A DNA stretch of 63,223 nt from Candidatus Parcubacteria bacterium (lineage in GTDB: Bacteria; Patescibacteriota; Minisyncoccia; Phycocordibacterales; JAKAEA01). Below, one piece after another: positions 17,845-51,227 of the stretch (its first letter is position 1; the number at the start of each line of letters is the position of its first letter). A program made the position numbers and the translations under genes. Where the stretch lies: assembly GCA_019661945.1 (NCBI GenBank), contig JAIFWI010000006.1, positions 1 to 63,223 of the forward strand, in the 5' to 3' direction. Under the pieces are notes generated by a model that was not told where the DNA came from, made no database searches, and saw nothing but the letters and a program-made list of their open reading frames with translations.

Positions 17845-18855
17845 ATGACCATGGAAGAGACACCTATACCAGAAGAAGGAGTGTTTTTGGACTCAACCCT
17901 GCGGCCGGACCGTTGGGATGATTACATTGGCCAGAAAACTATTAAGGATAATCTTCATATACTCCTAACCGCTGCTCAAGAACGCAAAACTGTGCCTGAG
18001 CACATTCTCTTTTATGGACCTCCTGGACTTGGAAAAACGACCCTGGCCCATCTCATAGCCAAGGAAATGAATACTCAGATGAAAGTGACCTCGGGTCCGG
18101 CTATAGAAAAAGTTGGAGACTTGGCTTCGGTCCTGACAAACCTTTCTCCCGGCGATATTCTTTTTATAGATGAAATTCACCGTTTAAATAAGGCTATTGA
18201 AGAAGTGCTCTATCCAGCTATGGAATCGGGCAAACTTGATATCATTATCGGCAAAGGCCCATCGGCAAGAACGATTCAACTCGATCTACCACCATTTACA
18301 TTAATTGCAGCTACAACACGTATTGCTCTTCTCTCCTCGCCGCTTCGCTCACGATTTTCTGGAGGAGTATTCCGTTTGGAATTTTATTCTCATGATGAAA
18401 TAGAAGAAATTGTCCGCCGATCTGCAAAGATTTTAGGAATAACGTTATCAAAAAAAGCAGCTGAGGAAATTGCTAAGCGCTCACGCTTCACTCCGCGTAC
18501 CGCAAATTATTTTTTGAAACGTGTCCGTGATTATGCTCAGGTTCATAAGAAAGAATTGGATCACGCAGCTGTACACGAAGCCTTAGAGATGCTCGGTGTT
18601 GATCATAAAGGCTTAACTCAATCAGACCGGACAATTTTGGAAACTATTATTCAAAAATATAATGGTGGGCCGGTAGGATTGAATACCATTGCTGCTTCCC
18701 TTTCCGAAGAACAAGCCACCATTGAAGAATTCAATGAACCCTATCTTATTCAAATGGGACTGATTGAACGCACACCGCGTGGCCGAACTGCTACGACTGA
18801 TGCCTACTCACACTTAGGTATGAATCCACCGGAGGAGCAGAATAAACTTTTATAA
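17845..18855 (+). CDS. ruvB: Holliday junction DNA helicase RuvB
   Basis: 336 aa. Walker A GPPGLGKTTLA, Walker B LFIDEIHRL and a sensor region. This is the typical RuvB layout. Confidence 0.95.
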   Translation: MTMEETPIPEEGVFLDSTLRPDRWDDYIGQKTIKDNLHILLTAAQERKTVPEHILFYGPPGLGKTTLAHLIAKEMNTQMKVTSGPAIEKVGDLASVLTNLSPGDILFIDEIHRLNKAIEEVLYPAMESGKLDIIIGKGPSARTIQLDLPPFTLIAATTRIALLSSPLRSRFSGGVFRLEFYSHDEIEEIVRRSAKILGITLSKKAAEEIAKRSRFTPRTANYFLKRVRDYAQVHKKELDHAAVHEALEMLGVDHKGLTQSDRTILETIIQKYNGGPVGLNTIAASLSEEQATIEEFNEPYLIQMGLIERTPRGRTATTDAYSHLGMNPPEEQNKLL

Positions 18856-18948: not shown

Positions 18949-19326
18949 TCAGGCGGGGACGAGATGCTCGCACTCGACACGGGTCTTGGCGTCGATGGTG
19001 ACGTTCAGCTCGCCGTTCGAGTGGATGAGTGCGCCGCGGAGGGTGTAGAAACCCCGCGGCAGCCCCTCGAGCTGTTCGGCGCCGGCGATGGTGGCGGGAC
19101 AATCCGGGATGGGCCCGGTACCGTACTCGGCGACCTGTCGACCCTGGGGAATCTCCGAATTGCAGAACCGGACGTCGGGGCCGTCGGCCGATGGCACGAT
19201 CTGGACCCGACCGATGTCGACACGGCTCTTCTCCCCGTGTTGGACGCCGGCCTCCTGGGCGGCGTAGTGAAGGGCTTCGGGCTGTTCAGAAGTACGCAAT
19301 TCGCGACGTGTGGGCGTGGAGCTCAT
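18949..19326 (-). CDS. Hypothetical protein, compositionally foreign (high GC)
   Basis: 125-aa ORF with RBS AAAGGA upstream of the ATG. 43/60 G+C at 19081-19140. No motif recognised. A mirror ORF on the + strand is judged to be a GC artefact. Confidence 0.5.
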   Translation of the reverse strand: MSSTPTRRELRTSEQPEALHYAAQEAGVQHGEKSRVDIGRVQIVPSADGPDVRFCNSEIPQGRQVAEYGTGPIPDCPATIAGAEQLEGLPRGFYTLRGALIHSNGELNVTIDAKTRVECEHLVPA

Positions 19327-19415
19327 GAGCAGATCCTTTCTCCAAGAGCGTTACCTTACCAAAGATTATACCTCTACCATAAAATTGTAAAGCATTAAGA
19401 TATATCCAAAGAGAA

Positions 19416-19439
19416 AGGGCGACACCGGAGTGTCGCCCT
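19416..19439. terminator. Intrinsic terminator hairpin downstream of the RTX-like ORF
   Basis: agggcgacac cgga gtgtcgccct, a perfect 10-bp stem flanked by T/A runs on both sides. Confidence 0.65.
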
Positions 19440-19489
19440 TCTTTTTTTACATAAAACAGATGTACAGATTACAGATGGGCCGATGTCGA

Positions 19490-20464
19490 TCAGCCCTTGG
19501 TCGGGGGCGGCAGCGTCGGCTCCGACCGCTTGGTCAGGATGTCGACGCTGGTGATGACGATGTTGACGAGGTCGGAGTCCTGGTTGTACCAGAGCTCGTT
19601 CTCGCCATCGCCGCCGTCGATCGTGCCGCGGGGGGTCAGGGGGCGCTGGCCGTCGTAGGGCCGACGGATCTCGAAGAGGTCGTAGTCCTCGCCGCCGACG
19701 AGGGTGTCGGTGCCAGCGCTGAGGTAGAAGTGGTTGTAGCCGTTTCCGCCCCGGACGATGTCGTCACCATCCTCGCCGCCCATGACGTCGCCGCCGTCGC
19801 CACCCTCGATGAGATCGTTGCCGGTCCCGCCGAAGATGAAGTCGTTGCCGGAGGCGCCGTAGAGCTTGTCGTTCCCGGAGCCGCCGTAGAGGTTTGCGTC
19901 GCCGGCGTCGTAGTCCGCGGGTTCGACCGCCCGAAGGATGTCGTTGCCGCTGCCACCGTCGGCGTAGGACCAGACGTCGGGTTCGACGTACTCGCCCCGC
20001 GGGATGTAGACCTGCGGGGCGTCCATGTAGATGGTGTCGCTGCCCGAGCCGCCGTTGACGGACACAGACATCGAACCCTGGACGCTCCGCGGGTCGGTGA
20101 TGAGCACCGCCCCCGCCACCTTCTTGAAGGTGATGGTGTCGTTGCCGCCCTGCCCGGTGATGTAGACCGAGTTGTAGCTCCCGGTCAGGCGCGTGTTGTC
20201 CACCAGCACTTTGTTCACCTCGCGCTTCAGCGCGAGCTGGGGGCCCTTGCGGCCCATGCTCAGGGTGAGCGTGATCTTCTCGGCCGCGGACGTGCCGACG
20301 ATCGAGAGATTGGTCCAGAGCTTGTGGTCGTCCATGACCTGGACGTTGGTGTCGATGCTCAAGGGCGCCGGCGGTGCCGCTGCCATGAGCTGCCTCGACT
20401 CGAGGCCCTCGATGAGGGCGCGCTGGATACAGGCGGTACGACGGGAAAAGATGCTACGCAGCAT
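19490..20464 (-). CDS. Secreted RTX/hemolysin-type calcium-binding repeat protein, compositionally foreign (high GC)
   Basis: 324 aa. Tandem GGxGxD nonapeptides (GGSGNDKLYGASGNDFIFGGTGNDLIEGGDGGDVMGGEDGDD). The N-terminal IEGLESRQLMAA leader is of the LExRxLL type common in planctomycete secreted proteins. 41/60 G+C at 19501-19560. Confidence 0.75.
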   Translation of the reverse strand: MLRSIFSRRTACIQRALIEGLESRQLMAAAPPAPLSIDTNVQVMDDHKLWTNLSIVGTSAAEKITLTLSMGRKGPQLALKREVNKVLVDNTRLTGSYNSVYITGQGGNDTITFKKVAGAVLITDPRSVQGSMSVSVNGGSGSDTIYMDAPQVYIPRGEYVEPDVWSYADGGSGNDILRAVEPADYDAGDANLYGGSGNDKLYGASGNDFIFGGTGNDLIEGGDGGDVMGGEDGDDIVRGGNGYNHFYLSAGTDTLVGGEDYDLFEIRRPYDGQRPLTPRGTIDGGDGENELWYNQDSDLVNIVITSVDILTKRSEPTLPPPTKG

Positions 20465-20564
20465 GGGATGCTCCTTCTCTGTATGGCTACATAGGCGTAG
20501 CCGAGCCAGATTCAGTTCTAAGGCAACCTTCCAAGGCAGCCCTATACCAAATCTTCTGATGGGT

Positions 20565-20593: not shown

Positions 20594-20815
20594 TATATGT
20601 TTAGTGGTAATCCTGCTTGTGGTTTTTTATGAGTTCAGCTTGTTCAATAGCCTCCTTGGGAGTGTATTCACCTGTTCGCAGGCGCCGACGAATATCATGA
20701 AGTGCCTCTACTTACCCATCATTTGCACCCATGGTCTGGACAACATTTATAGTGTTTAAAACAAAGTTCTCCGGATCTCCAACATTTAGTCCTCCTTCAA
20801 AAGTATTGAGTTTCA

Positions 20816-21193
20816 TTAGATGAGACCAGTGAAATAACTACGGGTAAAAAATGCTATAACAAATCCAATGGCTACAGCCAGTACAAATATTCCAAATGTT
20901 TTAAGACTTTTTATGCGAGAGAGTTCTCGGACAACCAGTCCGCCAATCGGAGCGAGGATAACATATGGCAAGGCCGTAGTGGCAAATCCAAAGCCGCTAA
21001 ATTGTTTGCCGTAGCTGGTGAGGCCCATGAGATCACCGGCAAGTTTTGTGCCGTAATCAATGACATCTTTCGGACCAAAGAAAACCATCAATCCGATGAC
21101 AAAACCAAATGCCAGATTAGTAATAATATTTAAAAGATTTGTGCCCTGATTCATTCCTGGCATTCCGCCCATACCATTTTGAAAAGGATTCAT
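20816..21193 (-). CDS. Hypothetical multi-pass membrane protein
   Basis: 125 aa. G/M/N-rich N-terminus followed by 3-4 hydrophobic helices. Confidence 0.55.
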   Translation of the reverse strand: MNPFQNGMGGMPGMNQGTNLLNIITNLAFGFVIGLMVFFGPKDVIDYGTKLAGDLMGLTSYGKQFSGFGFATTALPYVILAPIGGLVVRELSRIKSLKTFGIFVLAVAIGFVIAFFTRSYFTGLI

Positions 21194-21234
21194 ATGCGCT
21201 CAATAATACACCTGATTAATACTTATGGACAGGC

Positions 21235-21648
21235 TTAGAACTTGTTTCTTCTCTTCTGTCCTCTTTTGATCTGGAAATGATAGTAGAAAAATATAATTAC
21301 TGAAAAACAGAATGTTAAAAGATATACCAAATTCATTGAAAAAGAAATTGCATACCGTAGTAAATTCATTCCCACAAAGAAAACAATCGTAAATCCAATA
21401 ATTTTGTTGAGCGGGTATAATAATCCAATTGGAGATGAATCTAAGGCCCTCTTTGCATTCCGTATCTGTATATATCTTCCAACTAAAATTGCAGAAAAAA
21501 ATATAATGTATATTAATAAGAGTGGGGCCCATGAAAACCTTCCCCACACATCAGTAAGTGTGGCAGAAATAACCAACATGATTACTAATGCAGCGCCGAG
21601 AATAGATACTAACAAAAGAAAAATAATCCTTAACAATGATTTGATCAC
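21235..21648 (-). CDS. Hypothetical multi-pass membrane protein
   Basis: 137 aa with four hydrophobic segments. The overlapping 115-aa ORF (21200..21547) is judged spurious. Confidence 0.55.
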   Translation of the reverse strand: MIKSLLRIIFLLLVSILGAALVIMLVISATLTDVWGRFSWAPLLLIYIIFFSAILVGRYIQIRNAKRALDSSPIGLLYPLNKIIGFTIVFFVGMNLLRYAISFSMNLVYLLTFCFSVIIFFYYHFQIKRGQKRRNKF

Positions 21649-21690
21649 GTTAATACAATTATACTATACCTCAACTATATAGGTAACTAT

Positions 21691-21720
21691 GGTTGGGTCG
21701 GCAGGTGTTAGGGGTCAGGT
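21691..21720 (-). repeat. Array element E1 (divergent copy)
   Basis: The + strand ggttgggtcggcaggtgttaggggtcaggt shares the TTGGGTCGGCAGGTG half with E2-E6. Confidence 0.5.
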
Positions 21721-21741
21721 ATGCTCTATAGAATAAATATC

Positions 21742-22080
21742 TTAAACTTTTGGATGTTTTGCTAAATCATCTAAATAGGCATTGTTTGCCTCAAGTTTAG
21801 ATCGGGCAGATTCTACTTCTGTTGTTTTATTGTGAAGTTCTTCTTTCAGTGCAATAGTCTTTTTCTGAATACGTGAAATGAGAAAGCTTCTGCGTATTGC
21901 ACTTGGAATTGAAACCAGTACCCCAATCAAAATTCCGGTGACTACTGCCGCTATAAGTATTATCGCCAACGATCCGTCAATCTGCCAAGCCAAAAATGTC
22001 ACCGTTATAACCGTGATATTTTGTAAAGCAAAGATTACTGCAAACCCTCCAAGCACCAAACCAATTAAAAGAAATATCAT
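21742..22080 (-). CDS. LapA-domain (DUF1049-like) membrane protein with coiled-coil tail
   Basis: 112 aa. GGFAVIFALQNITVITVTFLAWQIDGSLAIILIAAVVTGILIG matches the two-helix LapA-domain pattern. Confidence 0.55.
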   Translation of the reverse strand: MIFLLIGLVLGGFAVIFALQNITVITVTFLAWQIDGSLAIILIAAVVTGILIGVLVSIPSAIRRSFLISRIQKKTIALKEELHNKTTEVESARSKLEANNAYLDDLAKHPKV

Positions 22081-22120
22081 AACTCATTGTATCACATAGT
22101 AGTTCGAATTCCTTTAGATA

Positions 22121-22154
22121 TGTCGGCAGGTAGATAGTGTTAGAACCTATTTTG
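22121..22154 (-). repeat. Array element E2
   Basis: The + strand is tgtcggcaggtagatagtgttagaacctattttg. It begins directly after the stop of the upstream cassette gene. Confidence 0.6.
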
Positions 22155-23063
22155 CTATTTTCTGATTTTAAAAGACTTACTAAATGCCTGAACAATTGGT
22201 GTTCTATCCTCACTTAGTCCATCCGCTTCATCAATACGAATTTGGTATTGGTCAAATAATTTGCTTGAATCTAAATTAAAATTACTTGTACCGTCACGGA
22301 GTGGTATTTCTCTTGGGTCAAGATACCATGAGAAACGTCCATCACTTGCCTTAACTGATTTTCCACCATTCAACACTATTAGGTTGGTGTAACCATTAGA
22401 ATCTGTGCCCACAATATATATTTGGACCTCCTTCATCCCCTTTGATTGCCACTCGATACTATTCGCTGAATCTACCCGCCATACTTGCCCGGCTTGAGGT
22501 GAAGTAATAGAAATAGAAATTAAATCAGATCTATACCTCAAGGTAAAAACAGCATCGGAGTTACTACAAATATATTGTCCTGTATTTTGTATATCGCCAC
22601 AAACATAAGCAATGTATTTAATATCGGCCATTAATAAAGGACTGTTTTTTACAATATCAGAATGAGTTAAGATGACAGCTCCCCTGTCAACACCGCCATC
22701 CGAAAGAGATTTTGAGATATACGTTGGGGCTTCTTCAAAATTATATCTTTGTACAAAATCATATTGCTTTACAACGATTTGTGGATTTACGAGTGTAACG
22801 TTTGAAAACCATTCAAATTGCATGTGAAAGAAACCATCATCATTTATCGTATAGCTTTCTTCGCCATCTGGTAAACTGACTTTTATTGATGGCAAGGTAG
22901 TAGCAGTCGGAGTATTTGTAGCATTTTTATTAACTGCCTCAGTCTGCAATAATTGATCTGATTTTGTCTTTGCGCCCAGGTAATAGATACTTCCACCTAT
23001 AGTTAGAACTGCAATTAGTAAAAAAACAAGCAGAGGAGTAAAACCTCTTTGTGAGTTTTTCAT
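22155..23063 (-). CDS. Hypothetical secreted/anchored protein
   Basis: Start moved to MKNSQRGFTPLLVFLLIAVLTIGG. This is a pilin-like GFxP(L/I)L anchor without the Glu5 of true pilins. The rest looks beta-rich. Confidence 0.6.
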   Translation of the reverse strand: MKNSQRGFTPLLVFLLIAVLTIGGSIYYLGAKTKSDQLLQTEAVNKNATNTPTATTLPSIKVSLPDGEESYTINDDGFFHMQFEWFSNVTLVNPQIVVKQYDFVQRYNFEEAPTYISKSLSDGGVDRGAVILTHSDIVKNSPLLMADIKYIAYVCGDIQNTGQYICSNSDAVFTLRYRSDLISISITSPQAGQVWRVDSANSIEWQSKGMKEVQIYIVGTDSNGYTNLIVLNGGKSVKASDGRFSWYLDPREIPLRDGTSNFNLDSSKLFDQYQIRIDEADGLSEDRTPIVQAFSKSFKIRK

Positions 23064-23102
23064 ATTGAGATAATTATACCCCATAATTAAATGAGTATAT
23101 AG

Positions 23103-23144
23103 ATGGGCTTGGTTGGGAGCTGGACGGGCTTAGAACCTGTTTTG
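23103..23144 (-). repeat. Array element E3
   Basis: The + strand is atgggcttggttgggagctggacgggcttagaacctgttttg, nearly identical to E6. Confidence 0.7.
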
Positions 23145-23147
23145 TAT

Positions 23148-23577
23148 AAAAAAATAGGCCCCGCTCGTTATTACAAGCGGGGCACCTGGTCAAGCCAGGA
23201 TTTTCGAAAGAACCTTCAGAAAGAGCTGCCGAACTTGTGAGGCGAAGATCCAAGACCTCACCAAGTTCAAAGGGTTGTCCAGAGGGACTGCGTGTCCCTT
23301 GTCGTGTCTATGATTTATTCGGAAGCTAACCCTTCCTAATACCGCCGATAAATCACAGAAACCTAGGCCTGATTGAGAAATAGACAGGCTTTTGCAGATA
23401 ATCAACCAAACTCTGCAGAAGCAATGGATAACCACGATCTTCGCACTTACTTATATCCTCTTCACTGATTAATCATCCATTACAATTCACCAGTGACACA
23501 AATGAGGGGCGAAGAGTCAGACTAGAACCGAACCGGTGCCAGGACCCGCTGACCGAGGGATACCTGCACTGAGCTGT
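23148..23577 (-). ncRNA. Candidate ~430-nt structured non-coding RNA of unknown class
   Basis: Bounded by a consensus promoter and an intrinsic terminator (GCCCCGCUUG UAAUAA CGAGCGGGGC followed by a 7-U run at 23148-23154). The only ORF (81 aa, 23190..23435) is Cys/Leu/Ser-rich and looks like junk. Many local and long-range complementary segments are visible by eye. Confidence 0.6.
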
Positions 23578-23582
23578 GATAG

Positions 23583-23610
23583 ATTATAGCACAGTCATAA
23601 TATTTGTCAA
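23583..23610 (-). promoter_or_regulatory. Consensus sigma70 promoter driving the candidate ncRNA
   Basis: The reverse strand has TTGACA (23605-23610), a 16-nt spacer and TATAAT (23583-23588). Confidence 0.65.
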
Positions 23611-23658
23611 CCTTTTTAGTGTAGTATTAAGAAATACGGCTCAATAGAGCCTTCCATT

Positions 23659-23696
23659 CGCTGGGTCGGGAGATGAACAGAATTAGAACCTACCAG
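23659..23696 (-). repeat. Array element E4
   Basis: The + strand is cgctgggtcgggagatgaacagaattagaacctaccagg. Confidence 0.6.
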
Positions 23697-23746
23697 GTAT
23701 AAATAAAAAAACTTTCGCCTGTTGAGCAAAAGTCTTTGTTTCGTGG

Positions 23747-24280
23747 TTACCTCCGAATCCTACCGTGGTTGAGCATGAAGTCAGGTGGAAAACGGAAAAT
23801 GTCGAGGTCCAACTTCGTTGTTATGCGCTTCCCCTGTTCGTCCACCGTAACTTCAGTCTCCTTGACAACGGCATCGATGATCACACGCCGCATCACTCCA
23901 AAAAATGATTCGATGACCCCATTGATCGTCTCTGATTCTGGCTCTGTATCACTTTCAATAAAGCCCGTAACAAACTCATAATCAGAAAAGGGTTCTTCCT
24001 GACCATCAATGTGATACCAGATCGTGTGCACGATCTCAGATTCAGCACTAGAACCACCTGTAGTGATCTTCCTGCGGCTTGAAGTTGCATTGAAGTCTAG
24101 TGTCACAAAGGGTCGGAAGGCAATGTATCCCACAGCTGCCACACGATCATGGATGTCGAACACGAGCTCCTCTACCCTGCCCTTCTTCTTATTGAGAGAT
24201 TCGAGCAGATGATGCAGCCTAACCGCTCTAGCAAGCCAAGGATCCTTACGGACAAGAGCAATGAACTTGTTCCAGTTCAT
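23747..24280 (-). CDS. Orphan cytosolic protein (177 aa from ATG 24280; 197 aa if the duplicated ATG at 24340 is used)
   Basis: Clean ORF with RBS GAAAGGAA 4 nt upstream of the ATG, and its own promoter (TTGACT..TATAAA at about 24408-24435). A hairpin plus T-run follows at about 23705-23740. No TM segments or known motifs. Confidence 0.65.
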   Translation of the reverse strand: MNWNKFIALVRKDPWLARAVRLHHLLESLNKKKGRVEELVFDIHDRVAAVGYIAFRPFVTLDFNATSSRRKITTGGSSAESEIVHTIWYHIDGQEEPFSDYEFVTGFIESDTEPESETINGVIESFFGVMRRVIIDAVVKETEVTVDEQGKRITTKLDLDIFRFPPDFMLNHGRIRR

Positions 24281-24390
24281 ATCATTCCTTTCTACCCTAT
24301 AGGTAGATGCGGGAATTGGATCTATCAGAGTCCAGTTCATATCATTCCTTTCTACCCTATAGGTAGATGCGGGAATTGGATCTATCAGAG
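24271..24390. repeat. Perfect 2 x 60-bp tandem duplication covering the 5' UTR, RBS and start codon
   Basis: 24271-24330 and 24331-24390 are identical (tccagttcatatcattcctttctaccctataggtagatgcgggaattggatctatcagag). Confidence 0.95.
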
Positions 24391-24443
24391 TCTGACTCTG
24401 ATTTCTGAAGTGTTTATACCATTATCTGCACAATAGTCAATGT

Positions 24444-24480
24444 CTTGGTCGGCACGTGGACACCGTTAGAACCTGTTTTT
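24444..24480 (-). repeat. Array element E5
   Basis: The + strand is cttggtcggcacgtggacaccgttagaacctgttttt. Confidence 0.65.
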
Positions 24481-24496
24481 AAGATTCCAAGCAGAT

Positions 24497-25045
24497 TTAT
24501 TCTGAAACAAATGAAGACTTTCTTAGTATTAGCTGTACCTCCTTTTGATTGGCATTAACAAATTGAATTTGCCAAATTATATCTGGTCTATAGTAATATC
24601 TACCAATTTTAACTAAGGTTGGTTCTGGGTCTACAGCTTCAGGGAATCGATTAGTTATCTCGCCTCTACCTATAAGTGTTTGTTCACAATGAGCATTTCC
24701 GCAATATCCAGCTTTATAAGCCATAATAAGTTTTCTACAATTGGACTGATTAGTAATTTTCCACCCAAGATTCAATCCCTCAACCGCAAAATTTCCATCT
24801 TTGTCTGTAATTGTTTTGATATTATCACCGTATTGAACCTTTCTAATATCCCCTCCAAAACCTGGCGTTGTACATGAATATTCAATTTCAACTGTTACAT
24901 CTTGTATTCCATTACCACTAATATCAACTATACGACCAGATGTTTCTGAAAAAGAAATATATTTTGGAATACCTAAAAAGACATAGAGACTAATACCTGC
25001 AACTATTACAATAATAATACTAATTATTAAAGAAAATACTTTCAT
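24497..25045 (-). CDS. Membrane-anchored protein with a carboxypeptidase-regulatory-like beta-sandwich
   Basis: Start moved to MKVFSLIISIIIVIV. GRIVDISGNGIQDVTVEI...TDKDGNFAVEGL resembles the CarboxypepD_reg fold signature. Confidence 0.55.
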   Translation of the reverse strand: MKVFSLIISIIIVIVAGISLYVFLGIPKYISFSETSGRIVDISGNGIQDVTVEIEYSCTTPGFGGDIRKVQYGDNIKTITDKDGNFAVEGLNLGWKITNQSNCRKLIMAYKAGYCGNAHCEQTLIGRGEITNRFPEAVDPEPTLVKIGRYYYRPDIIWQIQFVNANQKEVQLILRKSSFVSE

Positions 25046-25068
25046 ATTGCATCCATTGTACCACAAAG

Positions 25069-25108
25069 GATGGGCTTGGGTCGGGAGCTGGACAGGCTTA
25101 GAACCTAT
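25069..25108 (-). repeat. Array element E6
   Basis: The + strand is gatgggcttgggtcgggagctggacaggcttagaacctat. The reverse strand forms the T-arm-like hairpin AUAGG UUCUAAG CCUGU. Confidence 0.7.
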
Positions 25109-25112
25109 ATAT

Positions 25113-26273
25113 CTATTCAGTAACAGTGAAATCTACCGCCTTGCTCTCAACCGCATGTCTGATTAGGTATATCTTATATTTTCCTGGCACTACCGTAAAA
25201 TTAGATTTGCAATACCAATCGATATTGTATATACAGAGACTCGATTTTATATTTACCTTGGCAAGCGAAGCTGTACTTCTTGGTTCAGGAAATAACATAC
25301 CCTTTTCACCCTTAACATTTTCAATGATAATAATGAAATCACTTACATCTCCACCGAAATTCTTACCCCTAAGCTCTATGTATGTACCAATCTTTCCGTG
25401 ATCTGGAGAAACACTGTTTATGACAGGATCATTAGCTTTACCAGGGAAAGTCTGAGGATATTCATCAAGCGCATTCAAATTAAATGTCTTCTCGGTAGTT
25501 TCTGGCTTTGGAGTGGTCAGTTTTAAAGTAACCTCATTTTCATTTTTCCAACCAATGACATCAACCCCTCCGCCATATTGGAATGTAAGTGGAATAAACT
25601 TTAATGTTTTAAAATCATAAACCCAACCAAAATCATGAGCGGCATTTCGTACAGAGAAAGCAACTTTTGAACCATTAGGTGAAAACTGTACATCTTTAAA
25701 TTCTGCATCTCTACCTGCTTCAAATACAGTATCTTTTTGAACAACCATCGCTGGAATGTTCTGAGTCGATATTACTTTATTATCAATTGATATTTGTTTT
25801 TTATTCCAAGAGACTCCGGTATGCTTAAACGTTGAGAAAATTTTATTAATTATTATTGTATCCTCTGAAGTGCGCGCTACCATATCAAATCCAATATTGT
25901 AAGAAGGATCATATGCTGACTTTAAAAAAATAAACATATCTTCTTTCCATTCAGTATTTTCTTTATTATGTGGATTAGTATTTATACTAATACCGTTATA
26001 TGGGGAATCCGACTCTTTAACTGGGAAATTAATGTCTTCTATAGTTACATACGATTCATCACTATATACAGCTCTCCAATTCGGTGGAGCCTTAATACTG
26101 TAACCATACTTATCATTTCTGTATATCTTCCAACTTGCAGTTTCATCAAGTGCTTCCTGTGGTGCATTGATCTGACTTTGTAAAAAATAGTACCCGCCAC
26201 CGACAAGTACAACTACTAATAAAATAAGCAGGATGGGAGCAAAACCCTTTTTAGCATTTTTCATATTATTCAT
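25113..26273 (-). CDS. Hypothetical secreted/anchored protein with a C-terminal IPT/TIG-like domain
   Basis: 386 aa. KKGFAPILLILLVVVLVGGG anchor, and a C-terminal PVINSVSPDHGKIGTYIELRGKNFGG. Confidence 0.6.
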   Translation of the reverse strand: MNNMKNAKKGFAPILLILLVVVLVGGGYYFLQSQINAPQEALDETASWKIYRNDKYGYSIKAPPNWRAVYSDESYVTIEDINFPVKESDSPYNGISINTNPHNKENTEWKEDMFIFLKSAYDPSYNIGFDMVARTSEDTIIINKIFSTFKHTGVSWNKKQISIDNKVISTQNIPAMVVQKDTVFEAGRDAEFKDVQFSPNGSKVAFSVRNAAHDFGWVYDFKTLKFIPLTFQYGGGVDVIGWKNENEVTLKLTTPKPETTEKTFNLNALDEYPQTFPGKANDPVINSVSPDHGKIGTYIELRGKNFGGDVSDFIIIIENVKGEKGMLFPEPRSTASLAKVNIKSSLCIYNIDWYCKSNFTVVPGKYKIYLIRHAVESKAVDFTVTE

Positions 26274-26424
26274 ATTGTCTCACTAAAATCTAAACACAGC
26301 CATTCGGCTGTGCACAGGTTCGAGTCCCGCAATGGGGTGCCTACTGGGATTCGAACCGATGGAAAGATTAGACAAAAAGGATACTGTTGGTAGGATAAAG
26401 GCAACTCATTTAATATATACGAGC

Positions 26425-26955
26425 ATGTCAGGACATAACAAATGGTCAAAGATTAAAAGGAAAAAGGGCGCGTCGGATGCTCAGAGGAGTAAGCTGTTTG
26501 GGAAATTGGTGCGCTATATTACGGTTGAGGCAAAAAAGTCTGGCGGAAATCTGGCTTCGCCGGGACTGAAGACTGCTATTGAAAAAGCTAAGGAAGCCAA
26601 TATGCCTAATGACACTATCGATCGGGCAGTCAAAAAAGCCGCCACTGACAATTCGGCTCAGATGGAAAATATTACCTATGAAGCGTATGGTCCGGGAGGA
26701 TGCGCGCTTGTCATTGAAGCCCTGACTGATAATCGAAACAAAGCGGCGCAGGAAGTGAAACACATTCTTTCAAATCATGGTTTTTCATTAGCCGCTATGG
26801 GTGCGGCGACGTGGGCGTTTAAAAAAGAAGGCGGCGAATGGATTCCGCAGACGCCTGTTCAGATTAATGAAGAGGATAGTAAAATTTTAGAAGCCCTGAT
26901 TGAGGAGCTTGAAGAAAATGATGAGGTGCAGGATGTGTATACGAATGCAGAATGA
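26425..26955 (+). CDS. yebC: YebC/PmpR family DNA-binding regulator
   Basis: Start at MSGHNKWSKIKRKKG, which is the family signature. The track ORF begins upstream in non-coding sequence. Confidence 0.85.
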   Translation: MSGHNKWSKIKRKKGASDAQRSKLFGKLVRYITVEAKKSGGNLASPGLKTAIEKAKEANMPNDTIDRAVKKAATDNSAQMENITYEAYGPGGCALVIEALTDNRNKAAQEVKHILSNHGFSLAAMGAATWAFKKEGGEWIPQTPVQINEEDSKILEALIEELEENDEVQDVYTNAE

Positions 26956-41224: not shown

Positions 41225-41629
41225 CTATTTTGCTCTGTTCAAACTGTCGTAAATTCGATTAAGGTTCAGTAATTCTGGATTAATCGTCTGTAAAATAAGA
41301 GCGGAACCAAGGATAAGGACTAATCCCCACAAAGAACGTAAAATGATAGCTTTAGCATTGGTTTTTTTACCAAATGATTCGGCGCTAATATACATAAAAC
41401 CACCAACGACAAGAGATAGTACCGCTAAAACTCCTGAGAGACCGACAATGATTTTATACATAGCGCCAATATATTTTGGCAGCTCATTTGATTTAACCGA
41501 CGGTCCAATTTCTTTACTGATAGGTGCAAGCAGGACATAATCCTCTACGGCAATAACTCGGGCCGTAGGAAGGAAAAGTGTAGATATGATGAGACAGAGG
41601 GATATAATAAATAAAAATAAACGTTCCAT
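41225..41629 (-). CDS. VirB2/TrbC-like small two-helix membrane protein (putative pilin subunit)
   Basis: Signal peptide followed by two hydrophobic helices separated by a short charged loop (MYKIIVGLSGVLAVLSLVVGGFMYISAESFGKK..LWGLVLILGSALIL). The call rests on architecture only. Confidence 0.4.
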   Translation of the reverse strand: MERLFLFIISLCLIISTLFLPTARVIAVEDYVLLAPISKEIGPSVKSNELPKYIGAMYKIIVGLSGVLAVLSLVVGGFMYISAESFGKKTNAKAIILRSLWGLVLILGSALILQTINPELLNLNRIYDSLNRAK

Positions 41630-41633
41630 GAAA

Positions 41634-42617
41634 TTACTCCTCGGCATTGAAGGTAATAGTTACCTGTCGATTACTATATTGTAAAAGTTTTGCTGGGTTT
41701 GTGGCTTTTGCTCCAATCAGTGATCTACCTGTCTCAGTACCCGTATGGCGTAAGATAATCGAGCTGTCCTGCTCGGATGCCGCTGTATTATTGACGCGCC
41801 AATCAAAGGTAAGAGTAGAAAGATCGTGAGGAACGGCCGTGCTGAAGAAATAAGGTGCTGCTTTTAGCCATATTTCTTCATTTAGTAGGTTAATAGTCTG
41901 ACCTAAGGCTCGATGATAGAGTGGTCCGTAAAGTGGAGCCTCTTCGTATAAAACAATTTCAGGTGATTGCGGTGTTAAGACCACCCGGCCAGTACCTAAA
42001 GTCTTACCACTCTGTGAACTAACAGTGACTATCACTTCTATGGCTCTCAATACTACCCCACTTGTTACGGTCATTGAATCTTTGCCAAAGCCTGAAGCTT
42101 CTCGCACATTTTGGCCATTGACTTTCCAAGCATAGATTAGATTTTTTGGGCTTAGGCGAGTACCGTTTTCATAAAAATTTGACATAGCTACGACAGTAGC
42201 TTCTCCTTGAAATGGATACAGGGCCTTACCTCGGTAAAACGGCGGGGTATATGACTTTGCCTCCCAAATGAGATCAACTGTTCCCGGATTAATAACCTGG
42301 CTTACTTCATAGTCTTTACCATCAGCAGTAACAGCCACTACTCGAATGGATGTTTGTGAACCCTCCCGAGCAGCTGTGGTCTTAAAGCTTGTCTTGCCCT
42401 TACCGCTTGAGACTTCCGAACCATTAACAAGCCAGGTAATATCTGAGCGATTGAGATCAATAGCACCGCTCAAGACCGTAAAGCTTACACTTTGCCCTGG
42501 CTGAGGGTATTGAGGACTGAAGCGAAGAGATAATGTTGTATCAGGAAGCTGGGCAAAGACAGCCATGGGAAGATATAGTCCAAGCCCACATACTATATAA
42601 TAGAGAACCTTCTTCAT
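41634..42617 (-). CDS. Secreted Ig-like repeat protein
   Basis: 327 aa with a signal peptide ending AVFAQ. Beta-sandwich-like repeats. Confidence 0.5.
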   Translation of the reverse strand: MKKVLYYIVCGLGLYLPMAVFAQLPDTTLSLRFSPQYPQPGQSVSFTVLSGAIDLNRSDITWLVNGSEVSSGKGKTSFKTTAAREGSQTSIRVVAVTADGKDYEVSQVINPGTVDLIWEAKSYTPPFYRGKALYPFQGEATVVAMSNFYENGTRLSPKNLIYAWKVNGQNVREASGFGKDSMTVTSGVVLRAIEVIVTVSSQSGKTLGTGRVVLTPQSPEIVLYEEAPLYGPLYHRALGQTINLLNEEIWLKAAPYFFSTAVPHDLSTLTFDWRVNNTAASEQDSSIILRHTGTETGRSLIGAKATNPAKLLQYSNRQVTITFNAEE

Positions 42618-42641
42618 GGTATTAGTATACTATATGTTGAG

Positions 42642-43085
42642 TTAGGCTGCCTGTCGGTATTCTGACTCCTCTTCAGCATATTCCTCTTCTTCCTGCTGCT
42701 CTTGTTCTCGCATCTGGCGCATCCATAATGCTCTTTGGATTCGTTGTTCTTCCTCCTGTGAGGCAGCTTCGGCAGTTTCTTTTCCCTGAATTTTCATCTG
42801 GCGTTTTTTTTCGGAGCGAAAAATAAGTTCACTTGATATAAATTGCCAAGGAATGAAACTCAATGGCCAAATCCATGACAAAATAGTTGCAATGGCAGTA
42901 AGAACAATAACCTTCCAATCTTTAAGAAGGTGTAGGTAGCGCTTAATGCCGAGGTAGGCTTGATAGATCCAAAATATACCACTAAATAAAATTCCAGCCA
43001 CAGGTATCCAGCTCAAGACCCAAGCTAACCCAGATGCTATCCTTGAGTTTCGTCGATCACGTTTCAATGTATCTAGCTTATCCAT
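42642..43085 (-). CDS. Small 3-TM protein with an E/Q-rich tail
   Basis: 147 aa. Its start overlaps the VirB4-like stop by 1 nt (TAATG). Confidence 0.5.
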   Translation of the reverse strand: MDKLDTLKRDRRNSRIASGLAWVLSWIPVAGILFSGIFWIYQAYLGIKRYLHLLKDWKVIVLTAIATILSWIWPLSFIPWQFISSELIFRSEKKRQMKIQGKETAEAASQEEEQRIQRALWMRQMREQEQQEEEEYAEEESEYRQAA

Positions 43086-44896
43086 TAGGTTTGCCTACGT
43101 AGGTCCTCCTTTGCTTTTTTAATGGCTAGAATCTGCGAAGGATCTGACGTAATGATTTGATCTTCAGTATACGAAGCAATAACTTTAATAGCAACGTGTT
43201 TCACTCCGGCAAAGAAGATGCCCTCCCCTACATCGGACTCAAGGAGCAAATATTTTTCTTCATCAGTTAAGTTAAATGTTTGTTGAAGTTTATCAATTGA
43301 CGAGGGTGATTGTTTTAAGAGGACTTGAATTGAGGAGTTGGTAATAATCGGTAGGCCGTAGGGCGATTTCAAAAAGTCTTCAACGTCTTGAGTAATAGTA
43401 GATAATCCCAAGTAATATTTTCGTCCACGCTTTGCTAAGCCAAGCAAGAATGAGGCAGTATCTTCCGATTTCATCATCCACCAAGCTTCATCGATCACCA
43501 ACAGACGTTTCTTGATATTTTTACGAACAACATTCCAGATATAGTGAGTAACAATGTACATTGCAATTGGCTTCAATTCATCTTCCATATCACGAACAGA
43601 AAAGACAACAAACTTTTTATTCATGTCGACGTTTGTCGGCCGATTGATAAAACCGGCCCAGGTGCCTTTGGTATATTTGGTCAATCGTTGTGCCAATGAT
43701 TCCCCACCCTCCATACCTGCCAGTACCAATTCAAAATCAGAAAGGAGGGGTGGTTCAATGTTTGAGAAATCATTTTCAGGCGTAATATCTTTAAGAGCAT
43801 ATGTCTCTGTAATAGCTCGATCGATGATAGCATCTTCTTCTGGAGTAATTCCTCCAAGCATAATCCGAAAGAGACCGACTAGGTTAATAATATTTGAGCG
43901 TAAGACACTTGCCGGTGATTCATCTTCCTGAATGGGCGGCAAATCGAAAGGATTAATATGGTGTTCGGAATTAAGAGAAATATTAAAGTACCGGCCGCCG
44001 GTGGCTTCGGCCAGATATTCATACTCGCGTTCCGGATCAATGACAATGACTTCAGTATCAAACATAAGCGTTCTTAAAATCTCGAGCTTTGTTGTATATG
44101 ATTTTCCTGAGCCGGATTTTGCCAATGTTACTGAATTGTAGTTTTCAAGTGAGAAACGATCAAAAAGCACAAGACTTGAATTGTGGCGATTGATACCATA
44201 CAAAATTCCTTTATCAGAGGTTAAATCGAAAGAAATAAAGGGAAAAATACTTGAAAGTGGTGTCGAGTTTATTTTTGAATTCACCGACAACTCGTCATTT
44301 CCAAGAGGAATAACACTCTTAAAGCCTTGTTCTTGCTGGAAAAGTGCCGGCTTTACGTAGACCAGTTTTGATTCAAGAATCGATTTAATTTCTGATTCAA
44401 CCTTATCGAGTTCAGCATCAGTCTCACCATAAATTGAAATATAGAGGCCGACGTCAAATAATTTTTCCTGAGCTTGCTGAAGATTGTCGCGAAGGGTTTC
44501 TAGATCTTGGTAGGCAGTATCGAGAACTGGATCACGCACAAGACCCTTATCTTCCCTGATGCTGATCTGGCTTTGAATTTCAGCTACTTTCTTTTGAAAA
44601 TGACGGAGAATTGTTGCTGTATCAATTGGGTGAATGAAAATAGAAATATCAAAAATCTTGTCGAGATTGATGATTGGTGAGAACCAATTTTCGGACAAAA
44701 AACGTGGATACGAAATGACAAAGAAGGTCCTGACAATCTTATCACCCAAGTTCAGTGAACGTGGAGTGACTTTCAAAGCTGACGGAGCAATGATATCTTT
44801 AAGTTCAAGTGTAGCGGCTTGATAGACATCCTGAGGCAAGACTGTTGTATTCTCATCCTCTTTCTTATTCTTTTGTAGAAAACTAAATAATCCCAT
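43085..44896 (-). CDS. virB4: VirB4/TrbE/TrsE-family type IV secretion ATPase
   Basis: 603 aa. Walker A LAKSGSGKSYTTK and Walker B RLLVIDEAWWMM. The N-terminal domain pattern is typical of Gram-positive-type VirB4. Confidence 0.85.
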   Translation of the reverse strand: MGLFSFLQKNKKEDENTTVLPQDVYQAATLELKDIIAPSALKVTPRSLNLGDKIVRTFFVISYPRFLSENWFSPIINLDKIFDISIFIHPIDTATILRHFQKKVAEIQSQISIREDKGLVRDPVLDTAYQDLETLRDNLQQAQEKLFDVGLYISIYGETDAELDKVESEIKSILESKLVYVKPALFQQEQGFKSVIPLGNDELSVNSKINSTPLSSIFPFISFDLTSDKGILYGINRHNSSLVLFDRFSLENYNSVTLAKSGSGKSYTTKLEILRTLMFDTEVIVIDPEREYEYLAEATGGRYFNISLNSEHHINPFDLPPIQEDESPASVLRSNIINLVGLFRIMLGGITPEEDAIIDRAITETYALKDITPENDFSNIEPPLLSDFELVLAGMEGGESLAQRLTKYTKGTWAGFINRPTNVDMNKKFVVFSVRDMEDELKPIAMYIVTHYIWNVVRKNIKKRLLVIDEAWWMMKSEDTASFLLGLAKRGRKYYLGLSTITQDVEDFLKSPYGLPIITNSSIQVLLKQSPSSIDKLQQTFNLTDEEKYLLLESDVGEGIFFAGVKHVAIKVIASYTEDQIITSDPSQILAIKKAKEDLRRQT

Positions 44897-44905
44897 ACAA
44901 TATTA

Positions 44906-45541
44906 TTAGCCTAACTTAATTGGTTTTTCTGTCTCGCCTGGATTGAACAGTTTGTAAAATAATTCAACAATTTCTTCAGTGCCCAAACGAGCAACACGAA
45001 TGCCGCAGCGAATAAGACCCTGCTCGACAACGGAAACTCTTTCTTCAAGCTGTGCCCGATTTTCCTCATACATTTCAGTAGCTTCCTTCTTTACTTCCTC
45101 CTGTGGATGTTTTTTAAGGAGCGAGAGCGGATTCTTTTTGGTCAAAATTGCCGGGCTGTAGGGAATAATGACGAAGAAACTCTTGGTCATAATACTCGTT
45201 GTCTCGGTGAAATTTTTGACGAAGCCAATATATTCCTGAATTTGAATTTTTAACAAATCACTCATTTGTTCCTTTTCCCGCTGTTCAAGCAAAGCAAGAT
45301 ACGGCCTGATATCGAGTTTTCGTGATTCGATAAAAATTTGGATGGAGAAATCGAGGGAATTTAAGAAATCTTGGAACTGAAACAGGATAGCATTCTGCTC
45401 ATCAGCCGATTTCAGGGCAAAATTAAGAGAGGAACTCATAATAAGAGCACGCATTGAGTCATCTTTTAAGATAGCATAGCCATCCCGCACTTCTTTTATA
45501 GGCACAAATGCCTGTGTTGCCTTTCCCGGTTGCGAAGCCAT
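44906..45541 (-). CDS. Stand-alone protein resembling the VirB4 N-terminal domain
   Basis: 211 aa. FVPIKEVRDGYAILKDDSMRALIMSSSLNFALKSADEQNAILFQFQDFLNSLDFSIQIFIESRKLD parallels the N-terminal ~180 aa of the adjacent ATPase. No P-loop. Confidence 0.5.
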   Translation of the reverse strand: MASQPGKATQAFVPIKEVRDGYAILKDDSMRALIMSSSLNFALKSADEQNAILFQFQDFLNSLDFSIQIFIESRKLDIRPYLALLEQREKEQMSDLLKIQIQEYIGFVKNFTETTSIMTKSFFVIIPYSPAILTKKNPLSLLKKHPQEEVKKEATEMYEENRAQLEERVSVVEQGLIRCGIRVARLGTEEIVELFYKLFNPGETEKPIKLG

Positions 45542-45545
45542 ATGA

Positions 45546-45977
45546 TTATTGTATCACATCGTCCCTAGTCACTGGATTTAGGGACTCTCGGGTATCTAAA
45601 TTCCAGGTTAATTCCTTTAATTTACTGTTTGAGAGTTTTGGTATGAAGGCTGATGAGGCAGCACTTGGTTCCTCTTTCTTTATTTGTACGGCAGGCTTTG
45701 TTTCATGCTTCCAAATATAGAGCTTAGGATTGATGATATACATCACTGCATTTTCGAGAACGACGATGAATGGCCGATTATTGACCTTATAAAATGCCAA
45801 GGCAGACACAAAAGCAATAATAGGCATGATGAAAAACATCGATATGTACCAGGGAAATAAAAGATAGAAGACAACTGAAAGCCCTCCTCCACCGGCAAGG
45901 TACACAAACTGTTTTAAGGTAAGTGGGCCAAAGATTTTATCTTCTATTTCAATAAATTGTGGAATTTGAAACTTCAT
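45546..45977 (-). CDS. PrgI/VirB3-like small membrane protein
   Basis: 143 aa. MKFQIPQFIEIEDKIFGPLTLKQFVYLAGGGGLSVVFYLLF matches the PrgI-family start followed by two TM helices. Confidence 0.6.
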   Translation of the reverse strand: MKFQIPQFIEIEDKIFGPLTLKQFVYLAGGGGLSVVFYLLFPWYISMFFIMPIIAFVSALAFYKVNNRPFIVVLENAVMYIINPKLYIWKHETKPAVQIKKEEPSAASSAFIPKLSNSKLKELTWNLDTRESLNPVTRDDVIQ

Positions 45978-45982
45978 AACCT

Positions 45983-46753: not shown

Positions 46754-46758
46754 ATATT

Positions 46759-49443: not shown

Positions 49444-49444
49444 A

Positions 49445-51223: not shown

Positions 51224-51227
51224 GCTT

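Follow-up and report, generated by a model that had tools for sequence, protein, structure and literature searches.

Eight unrelated accessory units are stacked between two housekeeping genes, ruvB and yebC, in a small-genome, Paceibacteria-like member of the Patescibacteria, and each of their junctions carries a conserved sequence element of about 45 bp. The window analysed is a stretch of 63,223 nucleotides (contig JAIFWI010000006.1 of Candidatus Parcubacteria bacterium, assembly GCA_019661945.1). Five full copies of the element, two complementary half copies and a tRNA-His 3' fragment occupy the eight junctions of this minus-strand array, which lies about 10 kb from dnaA. The elements are best read as att-like DNA recombination sites that bound serially accreted gene cassettes, although mobility and the enzyme responsible are inferred from sequence alone.

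The array and its junction elements

The components of the locus, from the yebC-proximal end, are as follows.

26425..26955 (+): yebC (176 aa), the conserved right flank of the hotspot.
26335..26361 (-): 'head' copy, just upstream of yebC; the 3' end (T-loop to CCA) of a tRNA-His gene, marking the yebC-proximal boundary of the variable region.
25113..26273 (-): unit 1, a 386-aa secreted protein with a weak TIG domain; 35% GC.
25070..25110 (-): E6, full element, ATATAGGTTCTAAGCCTGTCCAGCTCCCGACCCAAGCCCAT; its GGTTC starts 8 nt after the upstream stop codon.
24497..25066 (-): unit 2, a 182/189-aa membrane-anchored ORFan; 32% GC.
24440..24478 (-): E5, full element; its right half, CACGTGCCGACC, is like the copies of the metagenome-assembled genome (MAG) MDV bin76.
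23747..24340 (-): unit 3, a 197-aa cytosolic orphan; 48% GC; followed by an intrinsic terminator (23737-23707).
23657..23695 (-): E4, full element, downstream of the unit 3 terminator and followed by a short hairpin (23651-23638).
23148..23610 (-): unit 4, a non-coding RNA unit of about 430 nt with a consensus promoter (TTGACA-16-TATAAT, preceded by TG) and a terminator (23183-23158).
23103..23142 (-): E3, full element (CCAACC variant), downstream of the ncRNA terminator.
22155..23084 (-): unit 5, a 309-aa secreted protein with a weak Kre9/KNH Ig-like domain.
22118..22152 (-): E2, full element; its GGTTC starts 7 nt after the upstream stop codon.
21742..22080 (-): unit 6, a 112-aa LapA-domain protein.
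21685..21707 (-): E1, right half only, CACCTGCCGACCCAACCATAGTT, joined to unrelated sequence at the central CA.
21235..21648 (-): unit 7, a 137-aa membrane protein; 32% GC; bounded by E1 and E0 in circularly permuted order.
21226..21247 (-): E0, left half only, AAACAAGTTCTAAGCCTGTCCA; its TAA is the stop codon of unit 7, and it breaks at the same central CA as E1.
20816..21193 (-): unit 8, a 125-aa membrane protein, probably once contiguous with unit 6.
17845..18855 (+): ruvB, the conserved left flank of the hotspot.

The repeat reported in the initial annotation is real. The minus-strand motif GGTTCTAA-N13-CCGAC occurs with 0-1 mismatch at five places: E2 (22122-22147), E3 (23112-23137), E4 (23665-23690), E5 (24448-24473) and E6 (25080-25105). 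Shuffled sequence gives 0.88 hits at 2 mismatches or fewer, and 0 of 100 shuffles reach 6. AGGTTCTAA alone gives 6 hits against 0.52 expected. The only hits outside the array (44660 and 48113) lie inside long ORFs and lack the rest of the motif. No copy occurs in the other ~59 kb of the window. All copies share one orientation.

Several details of the initial description required correction. E1, listed there as one of six copies, is only the right half of the element, and both the left half E0 and the head copy had been missed. The elements were described as far more GC-rich than the genes they separate. They are 49-55% GC (E2 is 37%), which exceeds the 32-37% GC genes, but two of the units are themselves 48% GC. 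The proposed T-arm-like hairpin, a 5-bp stem with a 7-nt loop, exists in E6, E4, E3 and E2, but is broken in E5 and in most homologous copies from other genomes. Other statements hold: the array genes share no similarity with each other, they are mostly membrane or secreted proteins, and the ncRNA is real as a promoter-to-terminator unit. Rfam searches in gathering and E-value modes, with no hit to the elements at an E-value of 10 or below, also found nothing for the ncRNA or the head region.

The head copy lies in the same orientation as the elements. Its 27 nt match E. coli tRNA-His at 92.6% in 5423 of 5426 genomes, and the same fragment sits at the same place in relative L017 (L numbers denote sequences from other genomes). 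ARAGORN finds no intact tRNA here. ARAGORN and Rfam find only tRNA-Lys (7504) and tRNA-Met (32696) in the window.

Evidence for serial assembly

The ruvB-yebC gap is a hypervariable insertion hotspot, either empty or holding different genes in every relative examined. It is empty in four relatives (L018/L019, L021 and L022); it holds one gene in L020, three in L016 and in L029, two different genes in the P0003 contig and ten in L017. A solitary TGGACAGCC just upstream of yebC in L022 looked like an empty site, but it aligns with the conserved yebC leader instead. Other occupants of the same hotspot, in L016, L020 and L029, have no such element. In the present array GC content is mosaic: the units run at 35, 32, 48, 48, 36, 37, 32 and 42%, with the breaks at the elements.

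Relatives of the element exist in a few other Patescibacteria contigs. A 23-nt exact pattern found nothing in GTDB genomes. A degenerate pattern found one related MAG plus chance singletons, four true metagenome contigs, and nothing in IMG/VR. Hits in Bathyarchaeota (L004, L006, L013 and L014) lie inside a beta-CASP/MBL gene; the peptide similarity is largely forced by the DNA pattern and was judged to be chance. In the MDV bin76 contig (L026/L027/L028), seven same-orientation elements bound units of 1-5 genes on either strand, including a histidine kinase unit and a five-gene ergothioneine/reductase unit on the opposite strand. One element there has no downstream co-oriented gene. Orientation is uniform in 7 of 7, 7 of 7 and 6 of 6 copies in three arrays. 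Elements within the window's array differ from each other, and individual copies are closest to copies in other genomes: E1 to L001, E4 to L011, and E5 to L002/L012.

A split pair of half sites lies around unit 7. The order is right half (E1), gene, left half (E0). Joined at the shared central CA, the two halves rebuild a full element that matches the MDV bin76 copy at 47 of 51 nt, which is read as the signature of site-specific recombination. Only one such pair exists in the data.

The orthologue of the LapA-domain protein (56% aa identity) in L023/L024 also carries GGTTCTAAC motifs on both flanks and has different neighbours, but these flanks are degenerate, and no case was found of one cassette with full elements in two different arrays. 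Unit 5 is 40% identical to an ORF in relative L021 that lies in a different context. The ice-binding genes of MDV and L017 are only 37% identical and their upstream DNA is unrelated. The equal-length 137-aa and 125-aa ORFs in L023 are unrelated to those of the window, and the 182-aa ORF of unit 2 has no homologue in 5.8 billion proteins.

Interpretation and alternatives

The initial reading, which offered a cassette array or repeated integration at a tRNA-like att site, with a tRNA-like mRNA punctuation or processing signal as the alternative, is partly supported: the evidence favours the former and does not support the latter. In the view preferred here, each cassette would be a self-contained unit laid out as the right half of a site, its own promoter, the gene, and the left half of a site, which starts at or within a few bases of the stop codon. 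A full element at a joint would then be a composite of the left half from one cassette and the right half from the next. Strand exchange would happen at or next to the central CA of GTC-CA-CCTG. The array starts at a displaced tRNA-His 3' end, and the site may descend from a tRNA-end or gene-end attachment site. The putative recombinase is not encoded beside the array and would act in trans or have been lost. What the analysis establishes is the repeat itself, its exclusive position at junctions, its uniform orientation and lack of structure, the variability of the hotspot, the split-site pair and the tRNA-His fragment; that cassettes move, where crossover occurs, and that an enzyme of any given type exists are inferences. 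This explanation is considered somewhat more likely than not. Pfam scans of 30 window ORFs, including all those flanking the array but omitting some small ones, found no recombinase, in agreement with the initial annotation, and none was found among the genes called in about 60 kb around related arrays. By inspection, the site has no dyad symmetry of the kind usual for tyrosine or serine recombinase core sites.

The origin of the site was sought in coding sequence. Conserved positions show a 3-nt periodicity, and in relatives the longer junction repeats read as C-terminal protein fragments with stop codons on the opposite strand. Searches of Pfam, NCBIfam, PHROGs, PDB, IMG/VR and plasmids for a parent protein were all negative, and weak similarity to PolA was judged spurious. 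The ruvB C-terminus and yebC do not match the element, nor do the C-termini of genes next to the arrays, and no intact parent gene lies at either end in four arrays.

Three other explanations are each considered unlikely. The repeats might be fossil scars only, decayed copies of a target-gene or tRNA end left by conventional integrase-carrying islands since eroded to single genes, with nothing now mobile. The tRNA-His fragment, the coding-like repeats of relatives, the degenerate state of E1, E0 and E2, and the lack of a nearby recombinase are consistent with this view. However, the site is conserved at 85-92% between distinct genomes that carry different cargo, whereas neutral scars would not stay this similar, the units are 0.4-1.3 kb with tight boundaries, every one lacking integrase remnants, and no intact target gene lies at either end in four arrays. 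Somewhat less likely is a selfish miniature repeat (REP- or MITE-like) that spread into intergenic DNA, its orientation biased by transcription or replication, without any role in assembling the array. The element is short, richer in GC than most flanking genes, intergenic and often just after stop codons, no recombinase is linked, and related longer variants (types B and C) exist in other genomes, some between convergent or divergent genes. Against this stand its absence from about 59 kb of core genome in the window, its uniform orientation, the lack of a palindrome or terminal inverted repeats, folding no better than shuffles, and the complementary half sites around one gene, which are not what insertion of a repeat would produce.

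A regulatory signal, such as a promoter-upstream operator, an alternative-sigma promoter or a 3'-UTR/processing motif coordinating a surface-protein regulon, is the least likely. In nine copies the element ends 18-33 nt before a TGnTAtAAT -10 box, in L015, L011 and L007 it lies between the stop codon and the terminator and is hence transcribed there, and its layout has two conserved blocks. Yet the distance to the -10 box varies, reaching about 80 nt at E4 and L002-3133, and the spacings do not fit an ECF sigma (GGAAC-N17-CGTC), sigma-28 or sigma-54 promoter. Copies lie before or after intrinsic terminators without pattern, with E3, E4 and L012 sitting after strong ones. Copies also bound opposite-strand units and occur between convergent genes, and the element is absent from all other promoters and 3' ends in the window. 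The T-arm helix is not conserved: only 67% of stem cells pair across 14 copies, no better than shuffles, the three inner pairs are broken in 6-7 of the 14, and the covariation score is reached by 174 of 500 shuffles. Inspection for parS, DnaA box, DNA-uptake sequence, DGR IMH and CRISPR repeat led to the rejection of each.

A bolder proposal, possible but doubtful on present evidence, is that Patescibacteria carry a previously undescribed gene-capture system functionally analogous to integrons. It would use a linear, asymmetric site of about 45 bp (AAAYAGGTTCTAAS-N2-YGTC-CA-SSTSCCGACCCARC) with exchange at the central CA, be served by an unlinked recombinase, and assemble promoter-bearing surface-protein cassettes at chromosomal hotspots near the replication origin. 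Patescibacteria (CPR) have tiny genomes and live attached to host cells, how they vary their surface and secreted proteins is largely unknown, and no integron-like system has been described for them as far as we could find. A junction site that is sequence-defined, unstructured and shared by several lineages would point to a new recombinase-site pair and provide a simple marker for accessory-gene arrays in metagenomes. The predicted excision junction, AGAAACAAGTTCTAAGCCTGTCCACCTGCCGACCCAACCATAG, makes the exchange of cassettes between strains a directly testable question.

Comparison with known systems

Xer/dif modules have a 28-bp site with two inverted 11-bp arms around a 6-bp spacer. The conserved core here is also 28 nt, but by inspection the arms match in only 5 of 11 positions, and only at the outer bases. 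REP/BIME and other intergenic miniature repeats are likewise short, relatively GC-rich and extragenic, often just 3' of genes. The present element is not palindromic, not dispersed over the genome segment examined (zero copies outside the 4-kb array in the window), and strictly one per junction in one orientation.

Genomic-island hotspots at tRNA genes, with tandem islands, share with this locus direct repeats in one orientation and a real tRNA-His 3' fragment at the head of the array. The elements have the GGTTC.AA T-loop-like core and the 5+7+5+7 layout of a tRNA 3' end. They are not tRNA fragments, however: the T-loop is TTCTAA(S), the 'acceptor' part is variable, CCGACC replaces CCA, and identity to the tRNA-His fragment is about 60%. 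No intact tRNA gene lies at the array and no integrase was found.

SCC/SCCmec composite islands, with Ccr serine recombinases and direct repeats from the rlmH 3' end, also show tandem accretion of unrelated modules at one conserved chromosomal site near oriC, bounded by same-orientation direct repeats. Many SCC modules lack a recombinase and depend on one supplied in trans, and the 2-nt overlap observed here is compatible with a 2-bp crossover. The target (the ruvB-yebC gap rather than rlmH) and the repeat sequence differ, modules are 0.4-1.3 kb rather than 3-60 kb, no ccr homologue was seen, and the repeat is not the end of an adjacent intact gene.

Integron gene-cassette arrays (IntI/attC) differ in several respects. 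Neither intI nor attI was found next to the present array, most cassettes carry their own promoter, and cassettes may hold up to five genes on either strand. As the initial annotation stated, the site is not attC-like: it has no imperfect palindrome and no R''/L''/L'/R' boxes, candidate stems pair in 67% and 84% of cells, no better than shuffles, related longer repeats likewise fold no better than shuffles, and the site is conserved as linear sequence. The resemblance lies in the layout: an array of unrelated small ORFs with one site per junction in one orientation, a site that begins at or over the stop codon, a cassette that is the circular permutation of site plus gene, and half sites of the kind left by insertion at a secondary site.

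The repeat and its array between ruvB and yebC

A 7.5-kb block of minus-strand units lies between ruvB (17845-18855, +) and yebC (26425-26955, +). From yebC leftwards, the block holds the following units and neighbouring features:

a 386-aa secreted protein (-)
a 182/189-aa membrane ORFan (-)
a 197-aa cytosolic orphan (-)
23148-23610 (-), a ~430-nt non-coding unit
a 309-aa secreted protein (-)
a 112-aa LapA-domain protein (-)
a 137-aa membrane protein (-)
a 125-aa membrane protein (-)
20600-20818 (-), further left, a short disrupted ORF
18949-20464 (-), two genes of 63% GC, one of them an RTX/Planctomycete-type protein

The motif GGTTCTAA-N13-CCGAC occurs five times on the minus strand, at 22122, 23112, 23665, 24448 and 25080, compared with 0.88 hits expected at 2 mismatches or fewer. 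The shorter AGGTTCTAA occurs six times against 0.52 expected. The remaining hits, at 44660 and 48113, are inside long ORFs and lack the rest of the motif. An nhmmer profile built from 13 copies finds nothing else in the window apart from two half copies. The junction repeat described in the initial annotation is therefore real, although its account needs correction: E1, listed there as one of six copies, is only the right half of the element (21685-21707), and a left half that had not been reported, E0 (21226-21247), overlaps the stop codon of the 137-aa ORF. Together with a 'head' copy at 26335-26361 (see below), all eight junctions carry a copy or half copy, all in one orientation.

The non-coding unit sits as a 'cassette' between elements E4 and E3, next to the 197-aa orphan. 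It has a perfect sigma-70 promoter (TTGACA-16-TATAAT, preceded by TG) and a strong terminator, and its predicted fold is more stable than shuffles (z = -2.68). It matches no Rfam family and contains no plausible ORF. A perfect 60-nt tandem duplication (24271-24390) covers the start codon and upstream region of the 197-aa ORF, and is either a real duplication or an assembly artefact. Array genes have extended -10 boxes (TGnTAtAAT) only 5-9 nt before the start codon and no Shine-Dalgarno sequence (21650-21665, 22081-22095, 23064-23085 and 25046-25062; also in L001, L002 and L017, sequences from other genomes), so these mRNAs are probably leaderless or nearly so. The ATG of the disrupted ORF overlaps the stop codon of the 125-aa gene, and the frame is interrupted by an in-frame TAA (MKLNTFEGG...ANDG*VEALHDIRRR...), which could indicate a pseudogene, a sequencing error or a recoding event. 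The two ORFs at 63% GC stand out in a 41% GC genome. One is an RTX calcium-binding protein with a Planctomycete extracellular motif. Each is set between AT-rich, native-looking promoters and terminators, which suggests foreign ORFs acquired into the same hotspot, and two relatives, L016 and L029, carry distantly related RTX-type sequences at the same locus. An inverted partial look-alike of the left half (CAGTTCTAAGGCAACCTTCCA) lies in the leader of the RTX gene, at the far end of the array (20505-20545, +), but may be chance.

The closest YebC proteins belong to Patescibacteria/Paceibacteria MAGs. In relatives the gene order is polA-tsaE-pilB-ruvB-[gap]-yebC-ruvC-tRNA synthetase (tRNA-synt_1b)-PBP-dnaN-dnaA. 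By synteny, the array therefore lies about 10 kb from dnaA, and DnaA-box-like repeats are visible at about 37.3 kb. Elsewhere in the window, a minus-strand cluster at 41225-52235 with a TraG/VirB4-like P-loop ATPase (43085-44896), an 894-aa multi-pass protein and large surface proteins looks like a type IV secretion or conjugation-like apparatus. The contents of the ruvB-yebC gap differ in every relative examined, and the gap is a hypervariable insertion hotspot. Between-strain variation of this kind had been named beforehand as support for a cassette reading. The occupants in L016, L020 and L029 do not carry the element.

Table. Contents of the ruvB-yebC gap in relatives (L and P handles denote contigs of relatives).
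L018/L019, L021, L022: empty (30-100 nt)
L020: one gene
L016: three genes
L029: three genes
P0003 contig: a C39 peptidase and a 148-aa ORF
L017: ten minus-strand genes

Related elements and the absence of a conserved structure

Clear homologues of the element are carried by one GTDB representative genome, the MAG 'bacterium MDV bin76' (contig JALYQZ010000002.1), and by four JGI metagenome contigs (L007, L011, L012 and L015). None was found in IMG/VR. The consensus is AAAYAGGTTCTAAS-NN-YGTCCASSTSCCGACCCARC. The 11-kb MDV contig and its strain variants L027/L028 hold four copies of this element (type A) and three copies of a longer variant (type B), all in one orientation, which delimit units of one to five genes. 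In L027, the outermost copy lies between the ice-binding unit and a divergently transcribed 261-aa gene. Because the units can be on either strand and hold one to five genes, the element cannot be a promoter or a 3'-UTR signal for its neighbours. It is a DNA-level landmark of unit boundaries. Contig L027 belongs to the same NCBI assembly as L016 (GCA_030154745.1): L016 carries the yebC closest to that of the window (90% identity), whereas L027 carries the MDV-type array, with TspO 100% identical to that of MDV bin76. Either close relatives of this organism carry type A arrays elsewhere in the genome, or the bin is mixed.

Table. Units delimited by the elements in the MDV contig and its strain variants, with gene strand in coordinates of L026.
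FMN reductase-EgtD-EgtB-disulfide reductase-105 aa: -
DUF3224 + GNAT: +
DUF305: +
histidine kinase: -
TspO: +
ice-binding protein: +

The initial annotation had described a tRNA T-arm-like hairpin within the element. Across 14 copies this stem pairs in 67% of cells, a value reached or exceeded in 418 of 500 shuffles, and the three inner pairs fail in 6-7 copies. An alternative xAGGT/ACCTx helix pairs in 84% of cells but is not above shuffles either. Rfam searches found nothing. Copies lie downstream of strong terminators at E3, E4 and L012, but upstream of terminators in L015, L011 and L007. Position relative to transcription signals is therefore inconsistent.

Evidence for recombination and the possible origin of the site

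Five observations bear on recombination. (i) E1 and E0 flank the 137-aa gene in the order right half, gene, left half. E0 matches the consensus up to ...GTCCA, and E1 matches it from CACCTG... onwards, so that the two overlap by the dinucleotide CA. Joined there, they give AGAAACAAGTTCTAAGCCTGTCCACCTGCCGACCCAACCATAGTTACCTAT, which matches the MDV copy at 47 of 51 positions. This is the attL/attR pattern expected when a circular cassette carrying a full site recombines with a non-cognate site. If it instead reflects two separate events, it still shows two recombinations that both broke at the same central point. No other split pair exists in the data. In this view, an excision junction joining the left half of E0 to the right half of E1 would contain AGAAACAAGTTCTAAGCCTGTCCACCTGCCGACCCAACCATAG, and an empty site would contain ...ACCTGACCCCTAACATAAGTATTAATC.... 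(ii) Unit GC values change at the elements: 35, 32, 48, 48, 36, 37, 32 and 42%. (iii) Elements in one array differ from each other, and individual copies are closest to copies in other genomes, as expected if each cassette brought its own half sites. (iv) The LapA unit has an orthologue (56% aa identity) in the related contigs L023/L024, with AGGTTCTAACA 60-67 nt upstream of the start codon and a GTTCTAAC-containing remnant just after the stop codon. Its neighbours there are different. (v) The 'head' sequence at 26335-26361, on the same strand as the elements and exactly at the edge of the conserved yebC leader, is the 3' end of a tRNA-His gene. It matches E. coli tRNA-His over 27 nt at 92.6%, in 5423 of 5426 genomes, and the same fragment sits at the same place in L017. 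A second T-arm-like fragment, on the + strand (ACAGGTTCGAGTCCCGCAATGGGG, preceded by a 7-bp hairpin), abuts it, so that two tRNA-like 3' fragments meet tail to tail between the first cassette and yebC (26296-26361). The elements share the GGTTC.AA core and the length layout of a tRNA 3' end, but they are not tRNA fragments. This is read as a hint about where the site came from, not as a function.

A further layer remains unexplained. The conserved positions of the element have a 3-nt periodicity. In L023/L024 and L017 the junctions carry a ~90-nt 'type C' repeat (L023 959-4788, L024 301-838, L017 9328-9413), found at six consecutive gene junctions with all copies in one orientation, including between convergent and divergent genes. 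Its opposite strand is an open frame in all copies, [LV]GPLQSDILSIFSDRVYLDVLREKLEYI, followed by a stop codon a few codons later, and reads as a conserved protein fragment. Third codon positions vary most, and amino-acid replacements are conservative (mean BLOSUM62 score +0.38). No other frame behaves this way, and the repeat has no secondary structure. In two copies, a type A-like segment is contiguous and in frame with type C. Type A itself reads LGR[EQH][VLM]D.[VLI]RT[CY][FL] on the opposite strand, but its sense frame, GSN[PS]VHLPTQ, is equally open and equally codon-like, so the coding strand is ambiguous. The MDV type B differs from type A by a 12-nt insertion, which keeps the reading frame. 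These features suggest that the junction sites descend from the end of a protein-coding gene, although the searches made did not identify the parent protein and no intact candidate lies next to any of the four arrays. Parallels are the rlmH-derived repeats of SCC elements and the icd' fragment left by phage e14.

Proposed mechanism and comparison with known systems

The explanation favoured here, with moderate confidence, is serial site-specific recombination of small promoter-bearing cassettes at att-like junction sites, with exchange at the central CA. The repeats, their junction positions and common orientation, the lack of conserved structure, the variability of the gap, the split-site pair and the tRNA-His fragment were observed directly, whereas the mobility of the cassettes, the point of exchange and the existence and class of a recombinase are inferred. 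Direct evidence of recombination rests on a single split-site pair. The 2-nt overlap would suit a serine recombinase. However, the site has no dyad symmetry, and no linked recombinase was found among the genes scanned in the window or in about 60 kb around related arrays, leaving the enzyme class open. The interpretation offered in the initial annotation is supported in part, for the cassette array but not for the T-arm-like hairpin or its alternative reading as tRNA-like mRNA punctuation. Among the rival explanations, fossil scars of ordinary islands are considered unlikely, a selfish miniature repeat slightly more so, and a regulatory motif the least likely of the three.

A literature search returned no description of such arrays in Patescibacteria. 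The proposed system would work like an integron or an SCC composite island, but falls short of the definition of both: it has no attC structure and no rlmH-type target, and neither intI nor ccr was found among the genes scanned in the window. It also differs from tDNA islands, in having no intact tRNA gene and no linked integrase among the genes scanned, and within the window it does not satisfy the criteria for REP elements or for dif modules.
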